Position numbers and translations under genes: made by a program. This document shows, in pieces, positions 1-12,417 of a stretch of DNA of 64,000 nucleotides (its first letter is position 1; each line of letters opens with the position of its first letter). Under the pieces are notes generated by a model that saw only the letters and a list, made by a program, of their open reading frames with translations, made no database searches and was not told the origin of the DNA. The DNA lies in the NCBI RefSeq assembly GCF_054482595.1, contig NZ_CM137008.1; one strand, 5' to 3'.

Positions 1-177
1 ATTACGCAAAATCACCGTGATATTGTTCATGCCGGGAATGGCTTCAACCACATTCGGCATATCCACCAGACGCTGCGCCAGTCGCCAGATCCGTTTCTGG
101 CTAGCCAGCGTCACCGGCGGTTCCAGTTCCAGCACTACCGCCGTTTCACCTATCAGATAACAACGCGCTCGTTGCAC
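1..177 (-). CDS. pxpB: 5-oxoprolinase subunit B (PxpB/YbgJ), N-terminal 59 codons; gene runs off the window start
   Basis: Minus-strand translation from GTG at 175-177 gives (M)[58 protein letters not shown], recognised as the PxpB N-terminus; sits directly downstream of ybgI as in K-12. Not in the ORF track because it is truncated by the window edge. Confidence 0.75.
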
Positions 178-199
178 TTTCGATCCCTCTGATTATTCG

Positions 200-943
200 T
201 TATGCAGGATTAGGAATATCAATAAAGGTCACATCAAGATCGGTATTTTCATTCAGCCACTCGCTCAATGCGCGAATACCACCACGTTCAGTGGCATGGT
301 GACCTGCAGCATAAAAATGCAATCCCTGCTCGCGGGCTGAATGAATGGTCTGTTCAGAAACTTCGCCAGTAATAAAAGCATCCACGCCAAAACGCGCGGC
401 GCTATCGATAAAACTTTGCCCGCCGCCCGTGCACCAGGCGACGCGCTGGACCACCTCAGGTCCGGTATCGCCACACCATAACGGCTTACGTCCCAGACGC
501 GCTTCAATCCAGGAAGCCAGCTCCAGTCCCGGTACAGGCATGGTCAGTTCGCCCCACGGCACCAACGGCTCAATTTCGCCCATGACCGTAATCCCCAGTA
601 ACGCCGCCAGCTGTGCGTTATTGCCCAGCTCAGGATGTGCGTCAAGCGGCAAATGCCAGCCATACAGGTTGATATCATTCGCCAGCAACGTTTTTAAACG
701 GTTACGCTTCATGCCGCGAATGACCGGAGATTCGCCTTTCCAGAAGTAGCCATGATGCACAATGACCGCATCCGCGCCCAGACGCACTGCCTCATCGAGC
801 AAAGCCTGGCTGGCAGTGACACCGGTAACAATTTTTTGCACCGTCTCTTTGCCTTCCACCTGCAAACCATTCGGCGCGTAATCACTAATCGCCGCGCTGT
901 TCAGTTTTTCGTTAATCAGTTGTTCCAGTTCGGTGTTTTTCAT
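200..943 (-). CDS. ybgI: Nif3-family metal-binding protein YbgI (GTP cyclohydrolase 1 type 2 homolog)
   Basis: 247-aa ORF, sequence recognised as E. coli YbgI; divergent from dtpD. Confidence 0.93.
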   Translation of the reverse strand: MKNTELEQLINEKLNSAAISDYAPNGLQVEGKETVQKIVTGVTASQALLDEAVRLGADAVIVHHGYFWKGESPVIRGMKRNRLKTLLANDINLYGWHLPLDAHPELGNNAQLAALLGITVMGEIEPLVPWGELTMPVPGLELASWIEARLGRKPLWCGDTGPEVVQRVAWCTGGGQSFIDSAARFGVDAFITGEVSEQTIHSAREQGLHFYAAGHHATERGGIRALSEWLNENTDLDVTFIDIPNPA

Positions 944-1030
944 CTTCGCGCCTTCCGTATTCTGATAGCTACACCGTTAACATAGCGTTACCTCGCCTGT
1001 TCGTCGATAGCCAATCTTTTGACATATTAA

Positions 1031-2695
<1,665 letters not shown>

Positions 2696-2710
2696 CAGGC
2701 CAGCACCGAT

Positions 2711-2816
2711 GCCTGATGCGACGCTTGACGCGTCTTATCAGGCCTACGTATTTCCTGCAATTTATTGAATTTGCAAAAATTTGTAGGCTGGATAAGGCGT
2801 TCACGCCGCATCCGGC
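2711..2816. repeat. REP/BIME element (two inverted REP copies) between convergent dtpD and phr
   Basis: gcctgatgcgacgcttgacgcgtcttatcaggcctac ... gtaggctggataaggcgttcacgccgcatccggc; matches the E. coli REP consensus. Confidence 0.8.
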
Positions 2817-2844
2817 ATCTGGGCTCGATTGCCTGACGCGTCTG

Positions 2845-4263
2845 TTATTTCCCCTTCCGCGCCGCCTCATACGCTGCCAACGTTTGTACTCTCGCCTCTT
2901 TGTGCTCGACTATCGGTTGCGGATAATCCAGCTTCACACCTGCTTTCTCAGCCCACTTCCACGGCTCATGCACCGATTTCCCCGGTACATTGCGCAGTTC
3001 CGGTAGCCACTGGCGGATAAACTCGCCTTCGCGGTCAAATTTCTCGCCCTGGGTTGTCGGGTTGAAAATACGAAAATACGGCGCTGCATCAGTACCCGTA
3101 GAAGCCGCCCACTGCCAGCCACCGTTATTGGCTGCCGAATCACCATCAATCAGCTGCGACATGAAATATCGCTCGCCTTCGCGCCAGTTGATCAACAAAT
3201 CTTTCACCAGAAAACTGGCTGTAATCATCCGTAGCCTGTTATGCATCCAGCCAGTGCTGTTAAGCTGACGCATGGCAGCATCGACAATCGGGTATCCCGT
3301 TTTGCCTTCCTGCCAGGCCTGTAAATGTGCGGGATTGCTCTGCCACTGCACACGATCCGTCCAGGCAATAAATGGACGATGTTTACACAACGAGGGGTGA
3401 TACGTTATCAGGTGACGGTAAAACTCGCGCCAGATCAGCTCATTAAGCCAGACACTACCGGCCCCACCGTCCAGCGCCTGCGGCTGTTCCGCCAACAGGC
3501 GATGCAAACACTGGCGAGGTGATAACCCGCCCGTTGCCAGGCTGGCGGACAAACGGCTGGTGCCTTCCACTGCCGGAAAATCTCGTTGTTGCTCATACTC
3601 TCCGGCACCGTTCTGGCAAAACTGGCGTAATTGCGCAATCGCCGCTTTTTCTTCCACCGGGAAATGCGCAGTATCGAAAGACTGACGAGGATAATTTAGC
3701 GTAATGGATGGCGCGGGCTTTATCGATCCGCTACTACGAACTTTTGGTGCAGCGACGCACTCCGGCATCCCTTCCCGCAGCCGTTTCAGCCAGGCATTCT
3801 TAAAAGGCGTAAAGACTTTGTACATCTCGTGATTGCCAGTCATCACCGCCCCCGGCGGCAGGATCACGCTGTCATCAAATCCTTCACACACCACGTTACG
3901 CAGCGCTCTTTCAACGTCCACATCCCGCGCCCGCTCATTCACCTCATACTGATAGTTATAAAAAAGATGAGTAACGCTGTTTTCCGCGCACACCTGTTTA
4001 ACTAATTCGACGCTGGCGACAAAGTCATCCACTTCACGGAACAATAAAGGAATACCTTTTTCCGCCAGCGCGATTTGTAGCCCGTTCAGTTGAGCATTGA
4101 TAAGTTCAGCCTGACGCGGCGACATATTATGCGCCGCCCACTGGCGTGGTGTAGCGATATACAACGCCAGCACGCGTGCAGACGAATTGCGGCAGGCGGC
4201 AGCCAGCGCGAGATTATCGTGCAGACGTAAATCCTGGCGAAACCAGACCAGATGGGTAGTCAT
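2845..4263 (-). CDS. phr: Deoxyribodipyrimidine photolyase
   Basis: 472-aa ORF recognised as E. coli photolyase (phrB); start overlaps the ybgA stop by 4 nt. Confidence 0.93.
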   Translation of the reverse strand: MTTHLVWFRQDLRLHDNLALAAACRNSSARVLALYIATPRQWAAHNMSPRQAELINAQLNGLQIALAEKGIPLLFREVDDFVASVELVKQVCAENSVTHLFYNYQYEVNERARDVDVERALRNVVCEGFDDSVILPPGAVMTGNHEMYKVFTPFKNAWLKRLREGMPECVAAPKVRSSGSIKPAPSITLNYPRQSFDTAHFPVEEKAAIAQLRQFCQNGAGEYEQQRDFPAVEGTSRLSASLATGGLSPRQCLHRLLAEQPQALDGGAGSVWLNELIWREFYRHLITYHPSLCKHRPFIAWTDRVQWQSNPAHLQAWQEGKTGYPIVDAAMRQLNSTGWMHNRLRMITASFLVKDLLINWREGERYFMSQLIDGDSAANNGGWQWAASTGTDAAPYFRIFNPTTQGEKFDREGEFIRQWLPELRNVPGKSVHEPWKWAEKAGVKLDYPQPIVEHKEARVQTLAAYEAARKGK

Positions 4264-4769
4264 AAAACTCCTGAATGGCGCAAGTTAATCACACGCGGCC
4301 AAAGTTCGAAATAACGCTGCCCTGAAAGCCAGGCGTCAGGATAAAGCGCCATATAGTGTTTGATACGCATCAGCGGCGCAAGAAGCGGTTGCTCGCCACG
4401 GCGATAACTGTCGATAAGCGCTGCCAGCTGCTGGCGTTCTGTGGAATCAATATGCGGGCGAAAATAACCCTGAACGTGCATCAAAACGTTGGTGTGATCT
4501 CGCGGGTTGGCAGGATGAGAAAGCAAAACAATTACGCGTTGGTAGTACTGGTTGTAATAGTCATCCAGATTTTGCCACCGATGAATATCAGCCACAAACG
4601 GGCCAAGTTTGCGGTATTCCGGCTGGGAATGCGCCAGAAAGACGAGTTTATAGCGGCTGTGATAATCGAGAAGCGCCCCGCGCGTTAAGCCTCGCTCTTT
4701 AAGACGGTGTAACTCCTGCAAAGCAAAAATGCGGATAAGGGTGCTGTCATCAAATCGTTGTAGATTCAT
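4260..4769 (-). CDS. ybgA: DUF1722 protein YbgA, co-transcribed with phr
   Basis: 169-aa ORF recognised as YbgA; 4-nt overlap with the phr start. Confidence 0.9.
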   Translation of the reverse strand: MNLQRFDDSTLIRIFALQELHRLKERGLTRGALLDYHSRYKLVFLAHSQPEYRKLGPFVADIHRWQNLDDYYNQYYQRVIVLLSHPANPRDHTNVLMHVQGYFRPHIDSTERQQLAALIDSYRRGEQPLLAPLMRIKHYMALYPDAWLSGQRYFELWPRVINLRHSGVL

Positions 4770-4942
4770 TACTGCTCCTGAACGGTTTACAGGAGTAAGT
4801 GTAGACGATGGTAAATGAATTTTGTGGGGTTATGCTTTCTTCCCTACCAAGCTGTTATATCCAGTTCAAAAACAATCATTTTACATCATCATCAAAGCAG
4901 CGAATACTTGACCGATTGGTAGTACCGCTGCATATTTCACCA

Positions 4943-5200
4943 TCAATTATATTTTATAATTTGTTGTATTGCTGACTTTATATTGCCAATGACATCCTCA
5001 TCATTAAATTCATTTAATATATTTTTTAGAATAGGATGTAGTTTAATATCACCTAAAATACCTGCCAAAATAATAACTTCATCAAAAATTATGTTTTTTT
5101 GCAGTTCATAAATTATAGCAGTTATAACACGATTATCTTTTCTTTCTGCCAGTCCGCTTATAGCTTCAATTCTGGCACAATCATTCTTATCTGTCAGCAT
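4943..5200 (-). pseudogene. HEAT/ARM-like repeat ORF fragment abutting the ISAs1 element, possible remnant of an Rhs immunity gene
   Basis: 85-aa AT-rich ORF with HEAT-like periodicity (ARIEAISGLAERKDNRVITAIIYELQ...); starts 12 nt below the transposase stop in the same frame; too short to be a complete HEAT-repeat protein. Confidence 0.3.
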
Positions 5201-6490
5201 TCCAGGGCAAGATTACGAAAGCCCGCTCCCCGCAAGGACTGACGCCAGATAGTTTCTGTCCATGGCTGCTTTTCGCATCTTACGTCTTAACCCTGCCTTG
5301 AATACCTTATCATTCGTCAAAATATTAATAGCAATGTGCCGTATCCCTGAAAATAATTCTGCTGCATTTCCTCTTCTTATTTTGCAGTCGTCTTCATTCA
5401 TTACCACGTCCAGACGCCAGTGCAGCTTATTCTCCACGTGCCAGTGGTTTCGGATTGCTGTGGCGAACTTCTCTGCGGTTAAATCAGCAGAACTGATATA
5501 ATATCTGACCGTCATTTCTGGCTCTTTCTTTTGTTCTGCTATTATGGACCGAAAGGAGACTGCCACGCATAATTTCTTCAGCCCTTTCCATTCAAACGTG
5601 AAATCAATAAGTTCATCAGGGACATCGCAAACATTATGAAGACGGATCTCTTCTCTGCCGTGACTCTTTTCACTCATTGCGTAACTGTCATGCTCTGGAT
5701 TATTTAATTCTTTCAGTGGAAATTTTTCCTCAAAGGCTTTATTAAGCCGCCCCTGATTTCCTTTTACAGCGAATAAATAATCACCGCCCTGTTTTTGTAT
5801 CTTCTCTGCGATATCTTTCTGGCAACCCATCGCATCAGTTGTGATAATTTTTCCTTTAATATCCAGCATGTTAAGAAGTTCAGGGATAGCTGTAATCTCA
5901 TTAGATTTCTCATCCGTCTTGATCTGTCCGATGACCAGACTGTGCATTGTTGAGAACGCACTAATGACATGAATCGCTCCCCTGCGGCGACTCTTGTCAT
6001 AAGAGTGCCGGAGCGTTTTTCCATCAATTGCAATGACGTCTTTATCATCTGAAGAATGGCAGTCACGCATCCAGTTAATAAAGCACTCGTGAAATTTTGC
6101 AGGACTGATACAGGATACAACTCTGGCAATGGTATCGTGAACAGGAATACCATTTTCAAAATCACCATATTGCTTCAAAAAATCGAGATGTGTTTCCCCA
6201 AAATCCTCTATATCTTCCCAGCCTTCTGCACCAGAAATAACGGCACAAATAGTCAACAGTAGAATATCCGATAATTTATGCTCCACTTTCCAGGCTTGTC
6301 TGTAATCAGGGATAATAGAAATATGTTCCATCAATTTTTTAAGTTCCATTTTGTTCTCCTTAATTATGTAAGGAGTATTTGATCATGTATAAGCAATAAA
6401 AAACAGCTTCAGGTAATGAGGAATATCTCAATTTTTAAACATAAAATGCGAATTATTTAGTACAAAAAGTGAACTTCTGATGATCTTTCC
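5201..6490 (-). mobile_element. ISAs1-family insertion sequence (E. coli H-repeat/ISEc1-like); boundaries approximate
   Basis: Contains an intact 378-aa ISAs1 transposase ORF; the size expected for an H-repeat is about 1.3 kb. Terminal inverted repeats could not be fixed by eye; only a short shared gcggggag core was seen near both ends. Confidence 0.5.
5213..6349 (-). CDS. ISAs1-family transposase (H repeat-associated protein), full length
   Basis: 378-aa ORF recognised as the H-repeat-associated (YhhI/YdcC-type) transposase family; no frameshift or internal stop. Confidence 0.9.
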
Positions 6491-6987
6491 CTGTGATTGC
6501 TTCCCGTTTCCCGATACGGCGGCGCGGGGAGTCATAAAGGTAAGAAATTTCCAGCAGTACAGCGTCCTATTGTTCACGGCGGTAATGCACCAACCAGTAT
6601 TGGCTATCGTAGTGATAACCGTGTAACCTGCCGCCGCATCGCGTATCTAATGTTCATTCTTTTCCATAAACCGTCCGTACACATTGTGATAGTAAAAATA
6701 CAATACATCTTCGCTGATGCGGTTATTCTGCTGCATGTGGGGAGCGCCGAATACTGCTCCCGGTATGGCCAGTAATTACTATTTAGTACGACGTTAGGGG
6801 GAGTCACTTAATCTCACAGATACTTCAAGTAACAGATGAAAATCGCTCCTGAAATGAAAAAAGAAATTTTTTTGAATGTGTTCCTGTCAAATCAAGTGGT
6901 TTTTTCGTCGATATGTAGAGTCATATTGTACACAAAATTGTTACGAAACACACCTTGGTAAAATATTTGAATCGACTGTACAGTGGA

Positions 6988-7290
6988 TTATTTTGTGTGT
7001 ATTACATTCAACACTTGCCCATCTTTTTTCGCTATTAGTATTGTAAAATTTCCTCCTAAAGTCTTCGGTTGTTTTCCCTCGATTTTCCAACAATTATTGT
7101 CATCTGTAATACTATATGGTTTCTGAAATTCTGCTTTTTCTTTCCCGTATACATATTTAATGTAAACATATGATAATTCCAAAGCCATTTCACGACTATT
7201 TACTAAAATTTCCACTGGATTTTCTTTTCCAAATACTTGTTATGATATTGTAAACAATATCATAATAAGTAATATTAGTGAGTTTCTCAT
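6988..7290 (-). pseudogene. Small secreted-protein gene interrupted by an in-frame TAA at codon 17 (orphan immunity-like remnant?)
   Basis: ATG at 7290-7288 opens MRNSLILLIMILFTIS, then TAA at 7242-7240, then the same frame continues QVFGKENPVEILVNSREMALEL... to the stop at 6988. The ORF-track 75-aa ORF (6988..7215) is the in-frame downstream part, starting at a GTG. Confidence 0.4.
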
Positions 7291-7458
7291 GTTCTACACC
7301 TATCGAATCTCAAAAGCTGTGGGTAAAACATTACATTCAGAATATATGATATTCTTACCATCGGAATCCATTTTTCCAAATCGACCTTCTGGTGTACCTG
7401 GATATCCATTAAGAACATGTTTTTCCGAATGGTTAATTTATTCTCTCAGGAAGATGTT

Positions 7459-8028
7459 TTATTTTTCTTCACTACGAAGCAGTTCATGCTGTATTTTTGT
7501 TAAACATTCGTAAGACTCATCTTTGTTCGGGAGATGTGCTGTCATTCGAGCATAAGTTGGCTTCTCATCTTTAAAATATTTAACCATGATTGAATTATCA
7601 AGGACTGCCAACAACTGAGCTGGATCACTGCTCTTTTTTTGATAGATACCCGCTCTTATATAACTTCTAAACCGATCGCCGAGAAACGCCGTTTTTTCTG
7701 CTGTATTTATCAACTCCTGCAACGTTCCTTTGATGGCATGATTTTCATTAAGGCGTAGTGACCCGACACGAATTAAGAGTCTCGCCCCGCTTGATGTGAA
7801 TTTATTATTTTTACATGTACCCAGTTCTGTTTGCCAATAATACTCACCGATGTCCTCATTCTGATACCATCTCCACATGGCTTTATTATTTAAGACAGGA
7901 AACGCGGAAAAAATAGTACCCTTAGCGAAAATAGTAAAACAATCATGATCTTTAGCTTGTATTTCGCAATCAGCTATAACACCAAAATTAACAAATATCA
8001 TCAGCAAAAAGAACAAAACTCTTTTCAT
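7459..8028 (-). CDS. Putative Rhs immunity protein with N-terminal signal peptide (YbfC-like by length and position)
   Basis: 189-aa ORF whose start overlaps the rhs stop by 4 nt; N-terminus [19 protein letters not shown] resembles a Sec signal peptide; low GC like the rhs 3' end. Confidence 0.6.
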
Positions 8029-8549
8029 TTTCTTATTCCTCTCGATGTTCTCTGTTTCATTTTAGCTAAAATTTCACCCAAATCATCTATCCCTGCTGTT
8101 GCTGGCCCATCGGGTTTATTAATGTCTGGGAATAAATAGGGTTCTGCACAAGTATATCCTGGTGGTAATTGAGTTGTTGGCCAATTTGTCTGTGGCAGGT
8201 AATCACTTGCTGTCTTTGTATCCATCCCTGGATACTGGGGATCATCCTGTGGCGTACAAGTCAGATTTGGTTTTACCCACTTCCTGCAATACAGTGTGTA
8301 GTCGTAAGGGCTTAATGCTCTGAAGAATGTTTTGAAAACATTAGGCGCACTACTGGCCTGGTCAATAGGATATGGCAGTCTTAATTGTTTCGCTATGTCT
8401 GGCAATTTACTTGGATCGGGCGTAGGCGGTTTGTTGGGTCTCGCTCCATATCCGCCATTATTTAAGTGTCCATATTTTGATGCCAGTCCCATTGAATCTA
8501 TATACTGAACCGGATTCAACGGATACTGATAAAAATTCCATCCCCCCTT
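8025..8549 (-). other. Rhs C-terminal toxin domain (174 aa after DPIGL), family not recognised
   Basis: Sharp drop in GC below 8550; residues [43 protein letters not shown]...[17 protein letters not shown]...[11 protein letters not shown]...; three Cys and Pro-rich stretches. Confidence 0.6.
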
Positions 8550-11500
8550 CAGTCCAATCGGATCCTGAGTGATATACCTCCCCTGCAGCGGGTCATAATA
8601 GCGGTGGCGGTTGTAATACAGGCCGGACTCCTCATCATACTGCTGACCCGGCAGGCGGATGAGCTGCTGCAGCTGGTGCGGGTTCTCTTCATTCAGCTGG
8701 TTACCCCATTCATCGTATTCTGCGTACCACGCTGTTGTCCCTTCCGTGCTGATAAGCGCCAGCGGCAGGCCGCGATGGTCGCAGTGGTACAGGTGGATTT
8801 TTCGCGCCGGCGTGTACACCGGGTCCATCTGGTTTTGCATCTGCTTCACCGTCAGGCCGCACGATGCCAGCCAGCGGCGGCTTTCCTCACTCACCCGGTC
8901 AGCCAGGATTTCACTTTCCAGCCGGTCGAGCATCTGCACCAGCACCGGCGGGAACACCACACTGCCACCGTCTTCACCGCCGGACTGCTGAAGGGCATCC
9001 GCCAGGCTGCGGCGCTGCGTTCTGGCCAGTTCACCGGTGGCAGTTTCAACTCTGATGAGTGGTGTGAAGCTCCCCGGCTGATAAATCGTCTGGATGCGGG
9101 TTCTGTCGTTCTGTATCGTGGTCAGGCGGTCGCCATCCCAGCCGTACCAGGTCACTTGCGGTTTCCGTGACAGCGACATCCAGCCCGTCAGGTCCCGTTC
9201 ACGTCGCCATACCCGTTTTGCCACCCTGCGGCCCAGCGGGTCGTAAAGATAGCGGCTTTCGACCAGCGGCTCTGCATATTGTGTCCGCGTGTAGTGCACC
9301 AGCCGGTGCTGACTGTCGTAATGGTACCGGTGGGTGCGCTCATCATCCGTGCGGATAACCCCTTCCGGGATGAGGTCGGTTTTCTCTGTCAGTCTGCCGT
9401 GACGGTCATACCGGTAAAGATAGTGCGCGTCACGGGCGATACGGTTATCCGGCCACATGCTGAGGGTGCTGTCCGGGTGCAGCTCCGGGTCGGGCAGGCG
9501 GTTACCTGCCGGGTCCGTGGCATACGGGATGCGGATATCAAGGTTCGCTGCCGTGGTGTGAACGCCGGTCAGCCTGCCGGAGTCGCTGTAGCTGTAACTC
9601 CGGGTATGGCGCGGGCTGCTGATGCGGATGAGTTCGCCGTTGTCGTTCCAGGTGTAATCGCGGTCAGACTGCAGGCTGTTCAGGTGCTGGCTCTGTAACT
9701 GCCCGGCAGGGGTATAAGCGGTGGTGAGTTCATAATGGCCGAAGCTGCGCAGCGTTTCCCGGTGCAGGCGGTCGCGGGTGAAATCCACCAGCGGTGTGTC
9801 GCCGAGCTTCATGCCTGACAGCCAGCCGCTGCCGTAGGTCAGCCATTCCACGGCGGGCAGGCTGTCCGGTATACAGCGGTTCGCCAGCCCCTGCGCGTTG
9901 TAAGCGTGTCTGGTCTCATGCTGCCAGAGCAGTGCTTCCGTCTGCGGGTGATGCACCGTCTGACGCTCACCGGTCAGGCGGCCTTTCTCATCATACCTGT
10001 AATGCACCGCTACCCGGTGCCCTTCGCTGATATGGCTGATGTCTGTCAGCCAGCCACGTTCGTCATACCGCCACCGCTCTGCGGTTTCACCCTTCACGGT
10101 GCGGTGCGTGAGGCGGTCTGCTTCGTCATAGTGCCAGTGGGTGACCAGACCCTCATCCTCGCTGCGGATAAGTTTGCCGGTCAGGTCGTGGTGATAATGC
10201 TGTGTGCGGCCGTCAAAGCCGGTTTCCTGTATCAGCCGGTCGAGTACATCGTAACGGAAGGTGGTGTGGCTGCCGTTTTCACTGGTCAGGCGGATGACCC
10301 GTCCGGCAGCATCGTATTCCATACTGCGCGTCAGACCGCCCTGCGTGGTACGGATGGCCTTTCCCCACGCATCGTACTGTGTCCCGTTTCTGCTGCCGTC
10401 CGGAGCAATGACGGCGGTCAGGTCACCGGCGGCGTTGTATTCATACCGCATTTCATGGCCCTGCATGTCTTTCACGGCAATTAACCGTCCACGGCTGTCG
10501 TATGCGCGGTACTGACTCAGCCCTTCCTCGCGGTGCACCGCCGTCATCTGCCCGAAACGGTCATGGTCATAACGGGTTACATAACCGGAACAGTCGGTGA
10601 AGCTCAGCAACTGGCCGTAACGGCTCCACGTCATGGTTTTCCGGCTGCCGGTGGCATCGTCCGTTGCGCAGGGTAAGTCACTGTGTGGATTATCATAACG
10701 GTAGCGGGTGATATCGCCGTCAGGGGCGGTTTCCTGAATCAGACGGCCGGATTCATCATATTCCCGGCGCATTTCCAGCCCGTCAGGCCCGGTGGCTGAC
10801 GTTAACTGGCTGTGGTGGTTATAGTAAAATGCCGATGCCCTGCCATCCGGTGTGGTGATGCGCGTGATGAGTCCCGTCACCACATCCGGGCTGTATTCTG
10901 TTGTCCGGCCTGCGGCATCCGTCTGTGCCTTAAGCCTGCCCACCGCATCAAACTGACTCTGCGTGACGCTGCCGTCCGCGTGTTCCTTTTTCACCACCCG
11001 CTTCAGCCCGCCTTCGCCCTGCGTGTGCAGCACTTCACGGCGGTCCAGGCTGTCGGTGATGGTGATGCGGTTTTGCTCATAACAGTAGGTGTAGCTTAAG
11101 CCCGCCGGGTTAAGCTGCTCTGTCACCCGCCCGTCGCTGTCGTAACGGTAACGGATTTCCGGTCGGCCCGTGTGACGGTGCGCCACCATCCGGCCCCGGT
11201 ATTTATCATCGTAAGTAAAGCTGCGCACCTGTGTATTGCTGCGGTCATACACCGCCGCCAGTTCGCCGCGTGGCGTCCAGCCATAGCGCACCAGCGGCGC
11301 GGCTGGCAGGTTGTCCGGGTATTCCGGGTCGTGCGTCAGCCACACGGCAGACAGACGGATGCCGTTGTCCCGGCCATATTCGGTGTAACCCGGCAGGGTA
11401 TCAGGAAAAGCGGACGGTTCCGTCCCGCCGGAAGAGGCCTGCTGCCGGGCTTCTTCTGCCCGCTGCGCCTGCGTGGTCAGTACCAGCCGGAAGTGACGCC

Positions 11501-12224
11501 CGGCACCATCCGTCACGCCGGTGATTTCGCCGCTGAATTCACCGGCGGCTTCGCGGTGGAACGTCTGTGTGCGCCCGAAGCGGTCCACCAGCCCGGTCAG
11601 TACCCGGTACGGCGGCAGCGGCGCAGGCAGCACCTCATCCGCTTCCGGCACCCGCTCACACCAGCCGAGCAGCCACCACGGCCCCTGCGGACTGTTTGTC
11701 GCCAGATAACGATGCGGACTTAAGCGGAGTTCTTCCGGCAGCGCCTGCCAGAGTGCGGCCAGCCGGTGACCTTCATCCAGTTTCGCCACGCCGCCGCGCA
11801 CCAGCCACAGTGACTCGCTGCGGCTGTAACCGTCCTCACCGGGAAACAGGTGCTCAAAATACAGGCTTCTGCCGCCGTTATCACTGAGTATCAGTGTGTT
11901 ATCGCGCAGCTGTAAGCGGATATCCGCAGGCATTTTCCAGCCGGGGCCGAGGCTCCCCACCGGCGCGGGCGTTTTTGTCCGGTAACTGCTGTAGGTGCGG
12001 GAGAGAATGAACGGCAGCGGGGCGGGCAGGGCGATGTCGGTTTCACCGGGAAGGACCTTTGCACCGAGCAGCGGATTGACCGGATGGCCGGACGTCACCC
12101 CGCCGGGGCACACCGAACAGGCCACGCCGGTGGGGGCACCAATACGTACCCCGGCTGAACCCTGGACAATGCTACCGCCATACTGCGTCATGTCGCCCTG
12201 ACGCGCCGCCGGTTTTCCGCTCAT
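8025..12224 (-). CDS. rhsC: Rhs family protein (RhsC by position next to ybfA-kdp) with variable C-terminal toxin domain
   Basis: 1399-aa ORF; N-terminal region with CSVCPGG motif, long YD-repeat core, and DPIGL core-end motif encoded at 8550-8564, followed by a 174-aa C-terminal domain. Confidence 0.9.
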
Positions 12225-12417
12225 CTGCTCATCCTTGTATTATCGGGTTATTTGTCCGCTGACAGGCAAAACCCTACAGATTTATAAGAAAGCCTTAAGT
12301 GAGATATCCGTCAGATAGAAACAATTAGGAAAATATTTATATATATTTCATGAATATATGTTTCGATTGGTATAACGGTGTCTAAATATTCCTCTGAACA
12401 TCTTCCTGATACAAAAA

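Follow-up and report, generated by a model that had tools for sequence, protein, structure and literature searches.

The locus examined here raises a simple question: what is the short, AT-rich open reading frame (ORF) that stands between an insertion sequence (IS) and the gene ybgA, beside an Rhs element of an E. coli chromosome? The surrounding stretch of 64,000 nucleotides (64 kb) is referred to as the window. A sequence-only reading of the window had taken the ORF for the HEAT-like 3' remnant of an Rhs immunity gene truncated by the IS, and for the outer edge of the Rhs element.

Location and annotation of the ORF

The ORF occupies 4943..5200 on the minus strand, with an ATG start and 85 codons plus a stop, and its GC content is 27%, compared with 51% across the whole window. 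RefSeq/PGAP names its product (WP_000954499.1) a 'hypothetical protein'. The ORF listing, the raw sequence and the GC content agree with the earlier description of an AT-rich, 85-aa ORF that begins 12 nt past the transposase stop in a common frame: the TAA of the ISEc1 transposase is at 5215-5213, the ORF ATG is at 5200-5198, the intervening nucleotides are 5212-5201, and both ORFs share one minus-strand frame. The accompanying wording, "fused in-frame", is too strong, as the TAA stop stands between the two. Because of this stop the shared frame has no structural meaning, and the match, which has odds of 1 in 3, is coincidental.

Ten of the 12 spacer nucleotides (5203-5212) belong to the terminal inverted repeat of the IS, while the remaining two (5201-5202) belong to the native gene, and the ATG sits 3 nt outside the IS. 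In longer relatives, the first methionine of the ORF is an internal residue ('...FIRMLTDKND...'). The ATG is thus an internal Met codon of the parent protein and not a start codon made by the IS, and the ORF has stayed open only because an internal Met chances to fall at the breakpoint.

Boundaries of the ISEc1 element

The neighbouring element is ISEc1 (H-rpt, ISAs1 family), which covers 5203..6493 on the minus strand (1291 bp) and encodes an intact 378-aa transposase (6349->5213, minus strand; NF033564 transpos_ISAs1, E=4e-125; Pfam DDE_Tnp_1 and DDE_Tnp_1_assoc). The sequence-only reading had left the exact inverted repeats to be mapped. At 5203-5213 the repeat is CAGGGCAAGAT, and at 6483-6493 it is ATCTTTCCCTG, an imperfect complement of the first; each is 11 bp long, 10/11 positions match, and the two place the ORF outside the IS terminal sequence. 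The same limits emerge from other ISEc1 copies in about 5,250 E. coli genomes, in which the alignment ends at 5199-5203 on the ORF side and at 6493-6499 on the far side, and from IS-free copies of the left flank, which begin at 6494. No target-site duplication is present at this ISEc1 copy; the flanks at 5192-5202 ('tgtcagcattc') and 6494-6504 ('tgattgcttcc') differ. The left flank shares only a 4-nt 'ATCA' with the stretch of the parent that lies immediately upstream of the breakpoint, a match that we judged compatible with chance.

Similarity to YibA and the HEAT-repeat fold

Pfam returned 0 families at E<=1 for the 89-aa in-frame translation of the fragment, and the HEAT assignment was therefore drawn from homology to YibA, from NCBIfam and from longer relatives. 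In a PDB sequence search, the sole significant match to the ORF was 1oyz_A (YibA; E=1.2e-17, residues 200-272 of 280), and BLASTP against K-12 YibA gave 49% identity over 71 aa (YibA residues 200-270, E=1e-20). The NCBIfam model NF007244/PRK09687 matched over positions 202-283 of its 285 (E=1.1e-25), at a score of 90.5 bits, below the equivalog cut-off of 275 bits. The ORF was aligned with YibA and with four further homologues (P0002, P0003, P0009 and P0010, described below). By these alignments, the ORF is assigned as a fragment of a YibA/Imm-HEAT family member and not as a complete member, since it spans 85 of about 285 positions.

The best of five AlphaFold models of the ORF (mean pLDDT 84, pTM 0.71) predicts five helices arranged as antiparallel HEAT-like helical-hairpin repeats, of which 2.5 hairpins are left in the stub; the four remaining models were poor (pLDDT 53-61). 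With Foldseek, the top PDB match to the best model was 1OYZ, with a query-normalised TM-score of 0.78, followed by alphaRep, QueG, deoxyhypusine hydroxylase and the HEAT-like repeats of CpcE/F. The HEAT-like character that had been proposed from the letters alone is thus borne out by the K-12 YibA, 1oyz_A and NF007244 matches together with the model. A 2026 paper retrieved under 'YibA' proved to be a study of YbiA (NADAR) and is unrelated to the ORF.

K-12 YibA (b3594; PDB 1OYZ; annotated 'putative lyase' in NF007244/PRK09687) is encoded downstream of rhsA. It shares with the ORF its protein family, its HEAT-like helical-hairpin fold and its genomic role as the gene that follows an Ntox34-type Rhs C-terminus. 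Unlike YibA, the ORF covers no more than the final ~30% of the protein and comes from a divergent allele; moreover, it lies at the RhsC locus beside ybgA and not at the RhsA locus, and its cognate toxin is missing from the window.

The parent gene and its relatives

Longer homologues were found by protein search, including P0002 (143 aa, 95% identical to the ORF), P0003 (145 aa, 87%) and two proteins of 148 aa, all of which bear precomputed HEAT/HEAT_2 domains. A parent of ~287 aa was reconstructed across frameshifts by stitching frames of two IS-free contigs, L005 and L003. This reconstruction and YibA align collinearly over 266 of the 280 YibA residues, with 37% identity (E=2e-56), and Pfam HEAT_2 (PF13646) matches the reconstruction at 1.1e-13. 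Its relatives include P0009, a 232-aa protein of Escherichia sp. E4742 (85% identical), and P0010, an intact 286-aa Salmonella protein that is 51% identical over 99% of the length and 54% identical to the 85-aa fragment. The search for a longer parent, and the view of the ORF as the 3' remnant of a longer gene, are therefore answered by P0002, P0003, P0009, the reconstructed parent and the intact Salmonella protein. We conclude that the ORF very probably corresponds to codons about 203-287, the last ~30% of a ~287-codon YibA-family Imm-HEAT immunity gene.

A fully intact copy of the allele found in the window was not recovered in our searches, which were not exhaustive; the word-indexed search with the 287-aa parent, for example, returned two matches at E<=1e-10 and missed K-12 YibA. 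Across 5,426 complete E. coli genomes, blastn in distant mode detected the truncated copy alone and no longer parent. The relatives themselves carry lesions. The HEAT gene is frameshifted in its N-terminal third in L005 and in the E4742 locus (L011), while that of L003 is interrupted by an early stop codon and shows a gap of 10 nt. The E. coli variants P0004-P0006 have lost 8 codons, shifted frame or kept a shortened ORF. With damage in every relative examined, these sequences indicate that the parent was probably a decaying orphan before the truncation.

Association with Rhs toxin/immunity modules

The immunity-gene interpretation rests on YibA and its partner. The C-terminal toxin region of K-12 RhsA (RhsA-CT) is a Pfam Ntox34 domain (E=1.4e-43). 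According to a statement in Poole et al. 2011 (PMC3150448), which cites Hill and colleagues, yibA neutralises the growth inhibition caused by RhsA-CT, and Ntox34 is paired with Imm-HEAT as its immunity partner in Zhang et al. 2012 (PMC3482391). Taken together, these points support the proposal that the parent of the ORF was an immunity gene.

The same arrangement is seen in a Salmonella enterica locus with the order VgrG-Rhs-HEAT, in which the Rhs C-terminus is a Pfam Ntox34 domain and the P0010 gene follows 6 nt after. Among the relatives found, this Rhs(Ntox34)/P0010 pair is the closest that is both intact and full-length, and it has the canonical toxin-then-immunity order. It belongs to another genus, is intact and is joined to a complete VgrG-Rhs effector; the copy in the window is an orphan and has been cut short. 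In the IS-free contigs L003, L005 and L007, a 28-codon remnant upstream of the HEAT gene shares 54% identity with the RhsA-CT tail (E about 6e-6). In the window, ISEc1 lies directly upstream of the ORF, and tblastn with RhsA-CT detected no Ntox34 sequence in the window.

Locus layout and the outer edge of the Rhs element

The backbone genes ybgI, dtpD, phr and ybgA fill 200-4769 of the window, and the Rhs element of the RhsC locus then follows. The first conserved backbone gene past the element is ybgA (DUF1722; 4260..4769, minus strand; PF08349, E=1e-34; also named in RefSeq). Positions 4833..4942 (minus strand) hold the 3' flank of the HEAT gene, which is AT-rich and forms the distal tail of the accessory region of the Rhs element; its limit is set by the K-12 homology endpoint at 4832. 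Beyond the left end of the IS lies an orphan, degenerate piece of rhs core (6494..6650, minus strand; '...HGYHYDSQYWLVHYRREQ*DAVLLEISYLYDSPRRRIGKREAI'), which was recognised by comparing a three-frame translation with the main Rhs sequence; it abuts the IS end and is unrelated to the HEAT gene. Next to it, on the rhs side of the IS, a neighbouring cassette contains an orphan Imm-NTF2-2 immunity gene (6988..7215, minus strand; PF15631, E=9e-21; RefSeq 'NTF2 fold immunity protein'). Further on, ybfC (8028->7459) and the rhs core gene (12224->8025) lie on the minus strand.

In a set of relatives comprising metagenomic/SRA contigs (L003/L004, L005-L009 and L016) and the Escherichia sp. E4742 locus, the HEAT gene occupies the same site as in the window without the IS and is the last gene before ybgA-phr. 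Because the HEAT gene of these relatives adjoins ybgA and is preceded by an Ntox34 tail remnant, we consider that the cassette at the distal end of the Escherichia RhsC-locus element was ancestrally an orphan Ntox34/Imm-HEAT module against ybgA. The position of the HEAT gene in the IS-free relatives and the start of K-12 backbone homology at 4832 also support the view that the ORF marks the outer edge of the Rhs element.

Genomes differ in how much of this tail they retain. In K-12, homology to the region upstream of ybgA stops at window position 4832, with the last H-rpt copy of K-12 just beyond, while in O157:H7 the right end of the IS abuts window position 4908 and the HEAT 3' flank is kept up to there. 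A sample of 60 genomes, spread across 5,421 matching genomes, gave four endpoint classes upstream of ybgA: about 4807, 4829-4832 (the majority of the sample), 4907-4908, and full-length (5202), the class to which the 35 window-type genomes belong. Among these classes, the window type keeps the most ancestral tail. The locus is the same as K-12 RhsC (ybfO-ybfC-ybfQ-ybfL-ybfD), with a main rhs gene, orphan cassettes, H-rpt copies and ybgA. The window differs in having one intact ISEc1, where K-12 has three defective tandem H-rpt copies, and in keeping 370 bp (4833-5202) lost from K-12.

Breakpoint and the missing 5' part

The breakpoint was defined by junction comparison. The homology of the IS-free loci L003, L005-L008, L011 and L016 runs from within phr/ybgA to 5202 and ends there. 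The junction reads '...TCATTTATCA|GAATGCTGAC' in L016, L011 and L005 and 'IS...CCCTG|GAATGCTGAC' in the window. The native part of the parent gene stops at the IS with the two nucleotides 5201..5202 (minus strand), which are the 'GA' left from the AGA codon for the Arg before the Met. In tblastn with the 287-aa parent, only residues 203-287 match the 64-kb window, and the first 202 codons have no counterpart anywhere in it. Beyond the left end of the IS, the DNA is non-HEAT and begins with the degenerate rhs core fragment, after which comes the Imm-NTF2-2 gene.

The sequence-only reading had attributed the truncation to the insertion of the IS. This holds: homology ends at 5202 and the IS starts at 5203. 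It needs one refinement, as the event was no simple insertion, given that both the 5' codons and a target-site duplication are absent. The truncation would instead have arisen by insertion plus deletion, or by recombination between IS copies. The predicted intermediate, an ISEc1 copy within an otherwise continuous HEAT gene and flanked by a target duplication, was not found. Nor did we see one left junction combined with varied right junctions, the pattern of nested right-end deletions from one fixed IS; the contiguous left junction of the IS occurs in 29 genomes only, essentially the same small carrier group. Because the nested-deletion pattern was not seen, the deletion mechanism is something we infer.

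Distribution and sequence constraint

By blastn, the fragment is carried by 35 of 5,426 complete E. coli genomes and is lacking in 99.4% of them. In the 35 carriers, which include O157:H16 Santai (NZ_CP007592) and XH990 (NZ_CP019359), it is always a single copy at this locus, at least 99.4% identical, with the ORF intact. No Shine-Dalgarno sequence lies at a usable distance from the ORF ATG ('CCCTGGAATG'), and the only GGA directly abuts the ATG. No terminator of the ORF, and no promoter in its native upstream DNA, was found. The ORF region differs from L005 by 11 nonsynonymous and 8 synonymous changes and from E4742 by 8 nonsynonymous and 0 synonymous changes. The pN/pS of about 0.36 against L005 is weakly compatible with residual constraint, 85 codons being too few to decide. 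Most probably the ORF has no function and survives as a relic, a marker of the distal edge of the RhsC-locus element; our confidence in its lack of function is somewhat lower than our confidence in its origin.

Alternative explanations

Two alternatives concern where the ORF came from. It could be a passenger or terminal sequence of the IS, or a chance ORF, as suggested by its position next to the transposase, the shared frame and the ease with which short ORFs arise in AT-rich DNA on some frames. The thousands of E. coli ISEc1 copies that end at 5199-5203 without 4943-5198, the confinement of the fragment to one locus, and the YibA homology refute this, and the homology (E=1e-17 to 1e-25) in itself rules out a chance ORF; we give the idea practically no credence. 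Alternatively, ISEc1 might simply have split an intact gene, with the 5' part now across the IS, which would agree with a breakpoint that falls exactly at the IS end. From 6494 on, the far flank is non-HEAT, the only parent residues in the window are 203-287, and the flanking 11-mers differ. A simple split is excluded because 202 codons are missing from the window and no target-site duplication is present, so this history, refuted for the window, has a negligible probability as well.

The other alternative concerns what the ORF now does. The 85-aa product could be made and work as a mini-protein, either as a truncated orphan immunity protein or as a decoy, with its translation coupled to the ISEc1 transposase ORF. 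An ORF intact in 35/35 carriers fits this idea, as does the compact five-helix unit of the best model; the near-identity of the copies and, weakly, the pN/pS value (from a tiny sample) count against a mere relic. An ATG 12 nt past the transposase stop also makes re-initiation conceivable. It is possible for an immunity gene without its toxin partner to be expressed and to protect (Poole et al. 2011). Against the mini-protein stand the loss of 70% of the alpha-solenoid, the missing Shine-Dalgarno sequence, the low quality of the other four AlphaFold models, the stops or indels in the homologous region of L003 and P0004-P0006, the frameshifts already present in the parent of relatives, the rarity of the fragment among complete E. 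coli genomes, and a window that encodes no Ntox34 toxin. We therefore regard a working mini-protein as very unlikely. Less probable again is its most specific form, in which the stub, translated by re-initiation after the transposase stop, keeps enough of the toxin-binding surface for partial protection against Ntox34-type Rhs toxins; if true, the IS would have made a transposase-coupled mini-immunity gene.

Proposed history and significance

The reading that we favour, and hold with high confidence, is that of a non-functional Ntox34/Imm-HEAT relic, cut at the end of ISEc1, whose 5' part was lost in a rearrangement. The ancestor would have carried an Ntox34/Imm-HEAT module as the last cassette before ybgA in the RhsC-locus element. 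Decay of the module would have come first, with the toxin reduced to a tail of ~28 codons and the immunity gene frameshifted. An ISEc1 (H-rpt) copy would then have arrived, with its right end at HEAT codon 202/203, in the lineage of the window. All DNA from the orphan rhs fragment upstream, which now starts at 6494, to codon 202/203 would have been lost, either because the IS deleted the DNA next to it or because two copies of ISEc1 recombined. In an E4742-like arrangement, the lost interval would be about 2 kb by estimate.

The ORF is thus the remnant of a divergent YibA/Imm-HEAT member in a well-described Rhs setting and reveals nothing mechanistically new. IS-associated erosion of orphan toxin/immunity cassettes has already been described for Rhs and CDI loci. 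As at the distal ends of other E. coli Rhs elements, with their 'silent cassettes' of orphan rhs-CT/rhsI, AT-rich accessory DNA erodes here beside an IS. The ORF matters little beyond its annotation and its use as a landmark. The label 'hypothetical protein' of WP_000954499.1 should give way to that of a pseudogene, namely a fragment of an Rhs immunity gene of the YibA HEAT-repeat family. As a landmark, the ORF indicates that most E. coli lineages lost the ancestral cassette beside H-rpt/ISEc1, at differing endpoints, and its locus illustrates the IS-associated erosion of orphan toxin/immunity cassettes.

Endpoints upstream of ybgA and decay of the HEAT fragment

Across E. coli complete genomes, homology to window positions 4770-5202, upstream of ybgA, was found to stop at four discrete positions according to lineage. 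These endpoints lie at about 4807, at 4829-4832 (the K-12 type, which forms the majority in the sample), at 4907/4908 in O157:H7, where the right end of ISEc1 abuts, and at 5202, the window type, present in 35 genomes. The four endpoints may represent a stepwise erosion associated with the insertion sequence (IS).

The HEAT fragment was compared with its counterpart in Escherichia sp. E4742 (window 4946-5200 against positions 8442-8696 of the E4742 locus, L011), as was the neighbouring ybgA (window 4260-4769 against L011 8873-9382). In the HEAT fragment the differences comprise 8 nonsynonymous changes and no synonymous ones (pS=0), whereas ybgA showed pS=0.22 and pN=0.03; by this sequence comparison the two seem to have unlike divergence histories, with counts too small for a test. 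A mosaic or recombination boundary, or else relaxed or diversifying selection, would be the candidate causes of this contrast. Decayed forms of the same HEAT stub were observed in other E. coli assemblies as three protein variants (P0004, P0005 and P0006): one has lost 8 codons in frame between short direct repeats ('AIIYELQKNIIFDE' to 'AIIFDE'), another is frameshifted and encodes 93 aa, and the remaining one is a 55-aa form.

Left junction of the IS

The left end of the IS (junction 6493/6494) adjoins a degenerate orphan rhs core fragment containing an in-frame stop (window 6494-6650). In O157:H7 and strain CT01, the orphan rhs sequence breaks at the identical nucleotide; beyond this shared breakpoint, these strains carry a 482-bp DUF6258 immunity cassette, whereas the window carries the IS. 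Among E. coli complete genomes, the window-type left junction is limited to 29 genomes, a distribution that fails to establish a single fixed IS.

In the minus-strand reading, the left flank ends in '...GCAATCA' immediately before the IS (junction at window 6493), and the parent HEAT gene reads '...TTTATCA' immediately before the breakpoint (junction at window 5203; position 252 of the IS-free relative locus L016, position 8440 of L011). The resulting 4-nt match, 'ATCA', could be due to chance or to a weak ISEc1 target preference.

Main rhs gene and related cassette arrays

The main rhs gene and ybfC region (window 7420-12224, minus strand) was compared with the K-12 locus (L002). The C-terminal region borne by the window's main rhs, and the immunity gene ybfC that goes with it, make up in K-12 the orphan ybfO-ybfC module lying downstream. 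The match between window 7420-9530 and K-12 7149-9259 is 97.7%, and the K-12 rhsC core matches window 8487-12300 at 96.4%. In this comparison, the RhsC-CT and ybfB of K-12 were absent from the window. Judged from these alignments, the main rhs of the window looks like a gene onto which an orphan cassette was "loaded" via recombination inside the core.

Positions 1-8700 of the E4742 locus encompass the same locus with a fuller cassette array, in the order Rhs, DUF6258, pentapeptide-repeat protein, Imm-NTF2-2, orphan Rhs (311 aa), a 149-aa protein, an Ntox34 tail remnant, the HEAT gene and ybgA. Attempts to reconstruct how the RhsC locus of E. coli evolved would have a helpful point of reference in this array.
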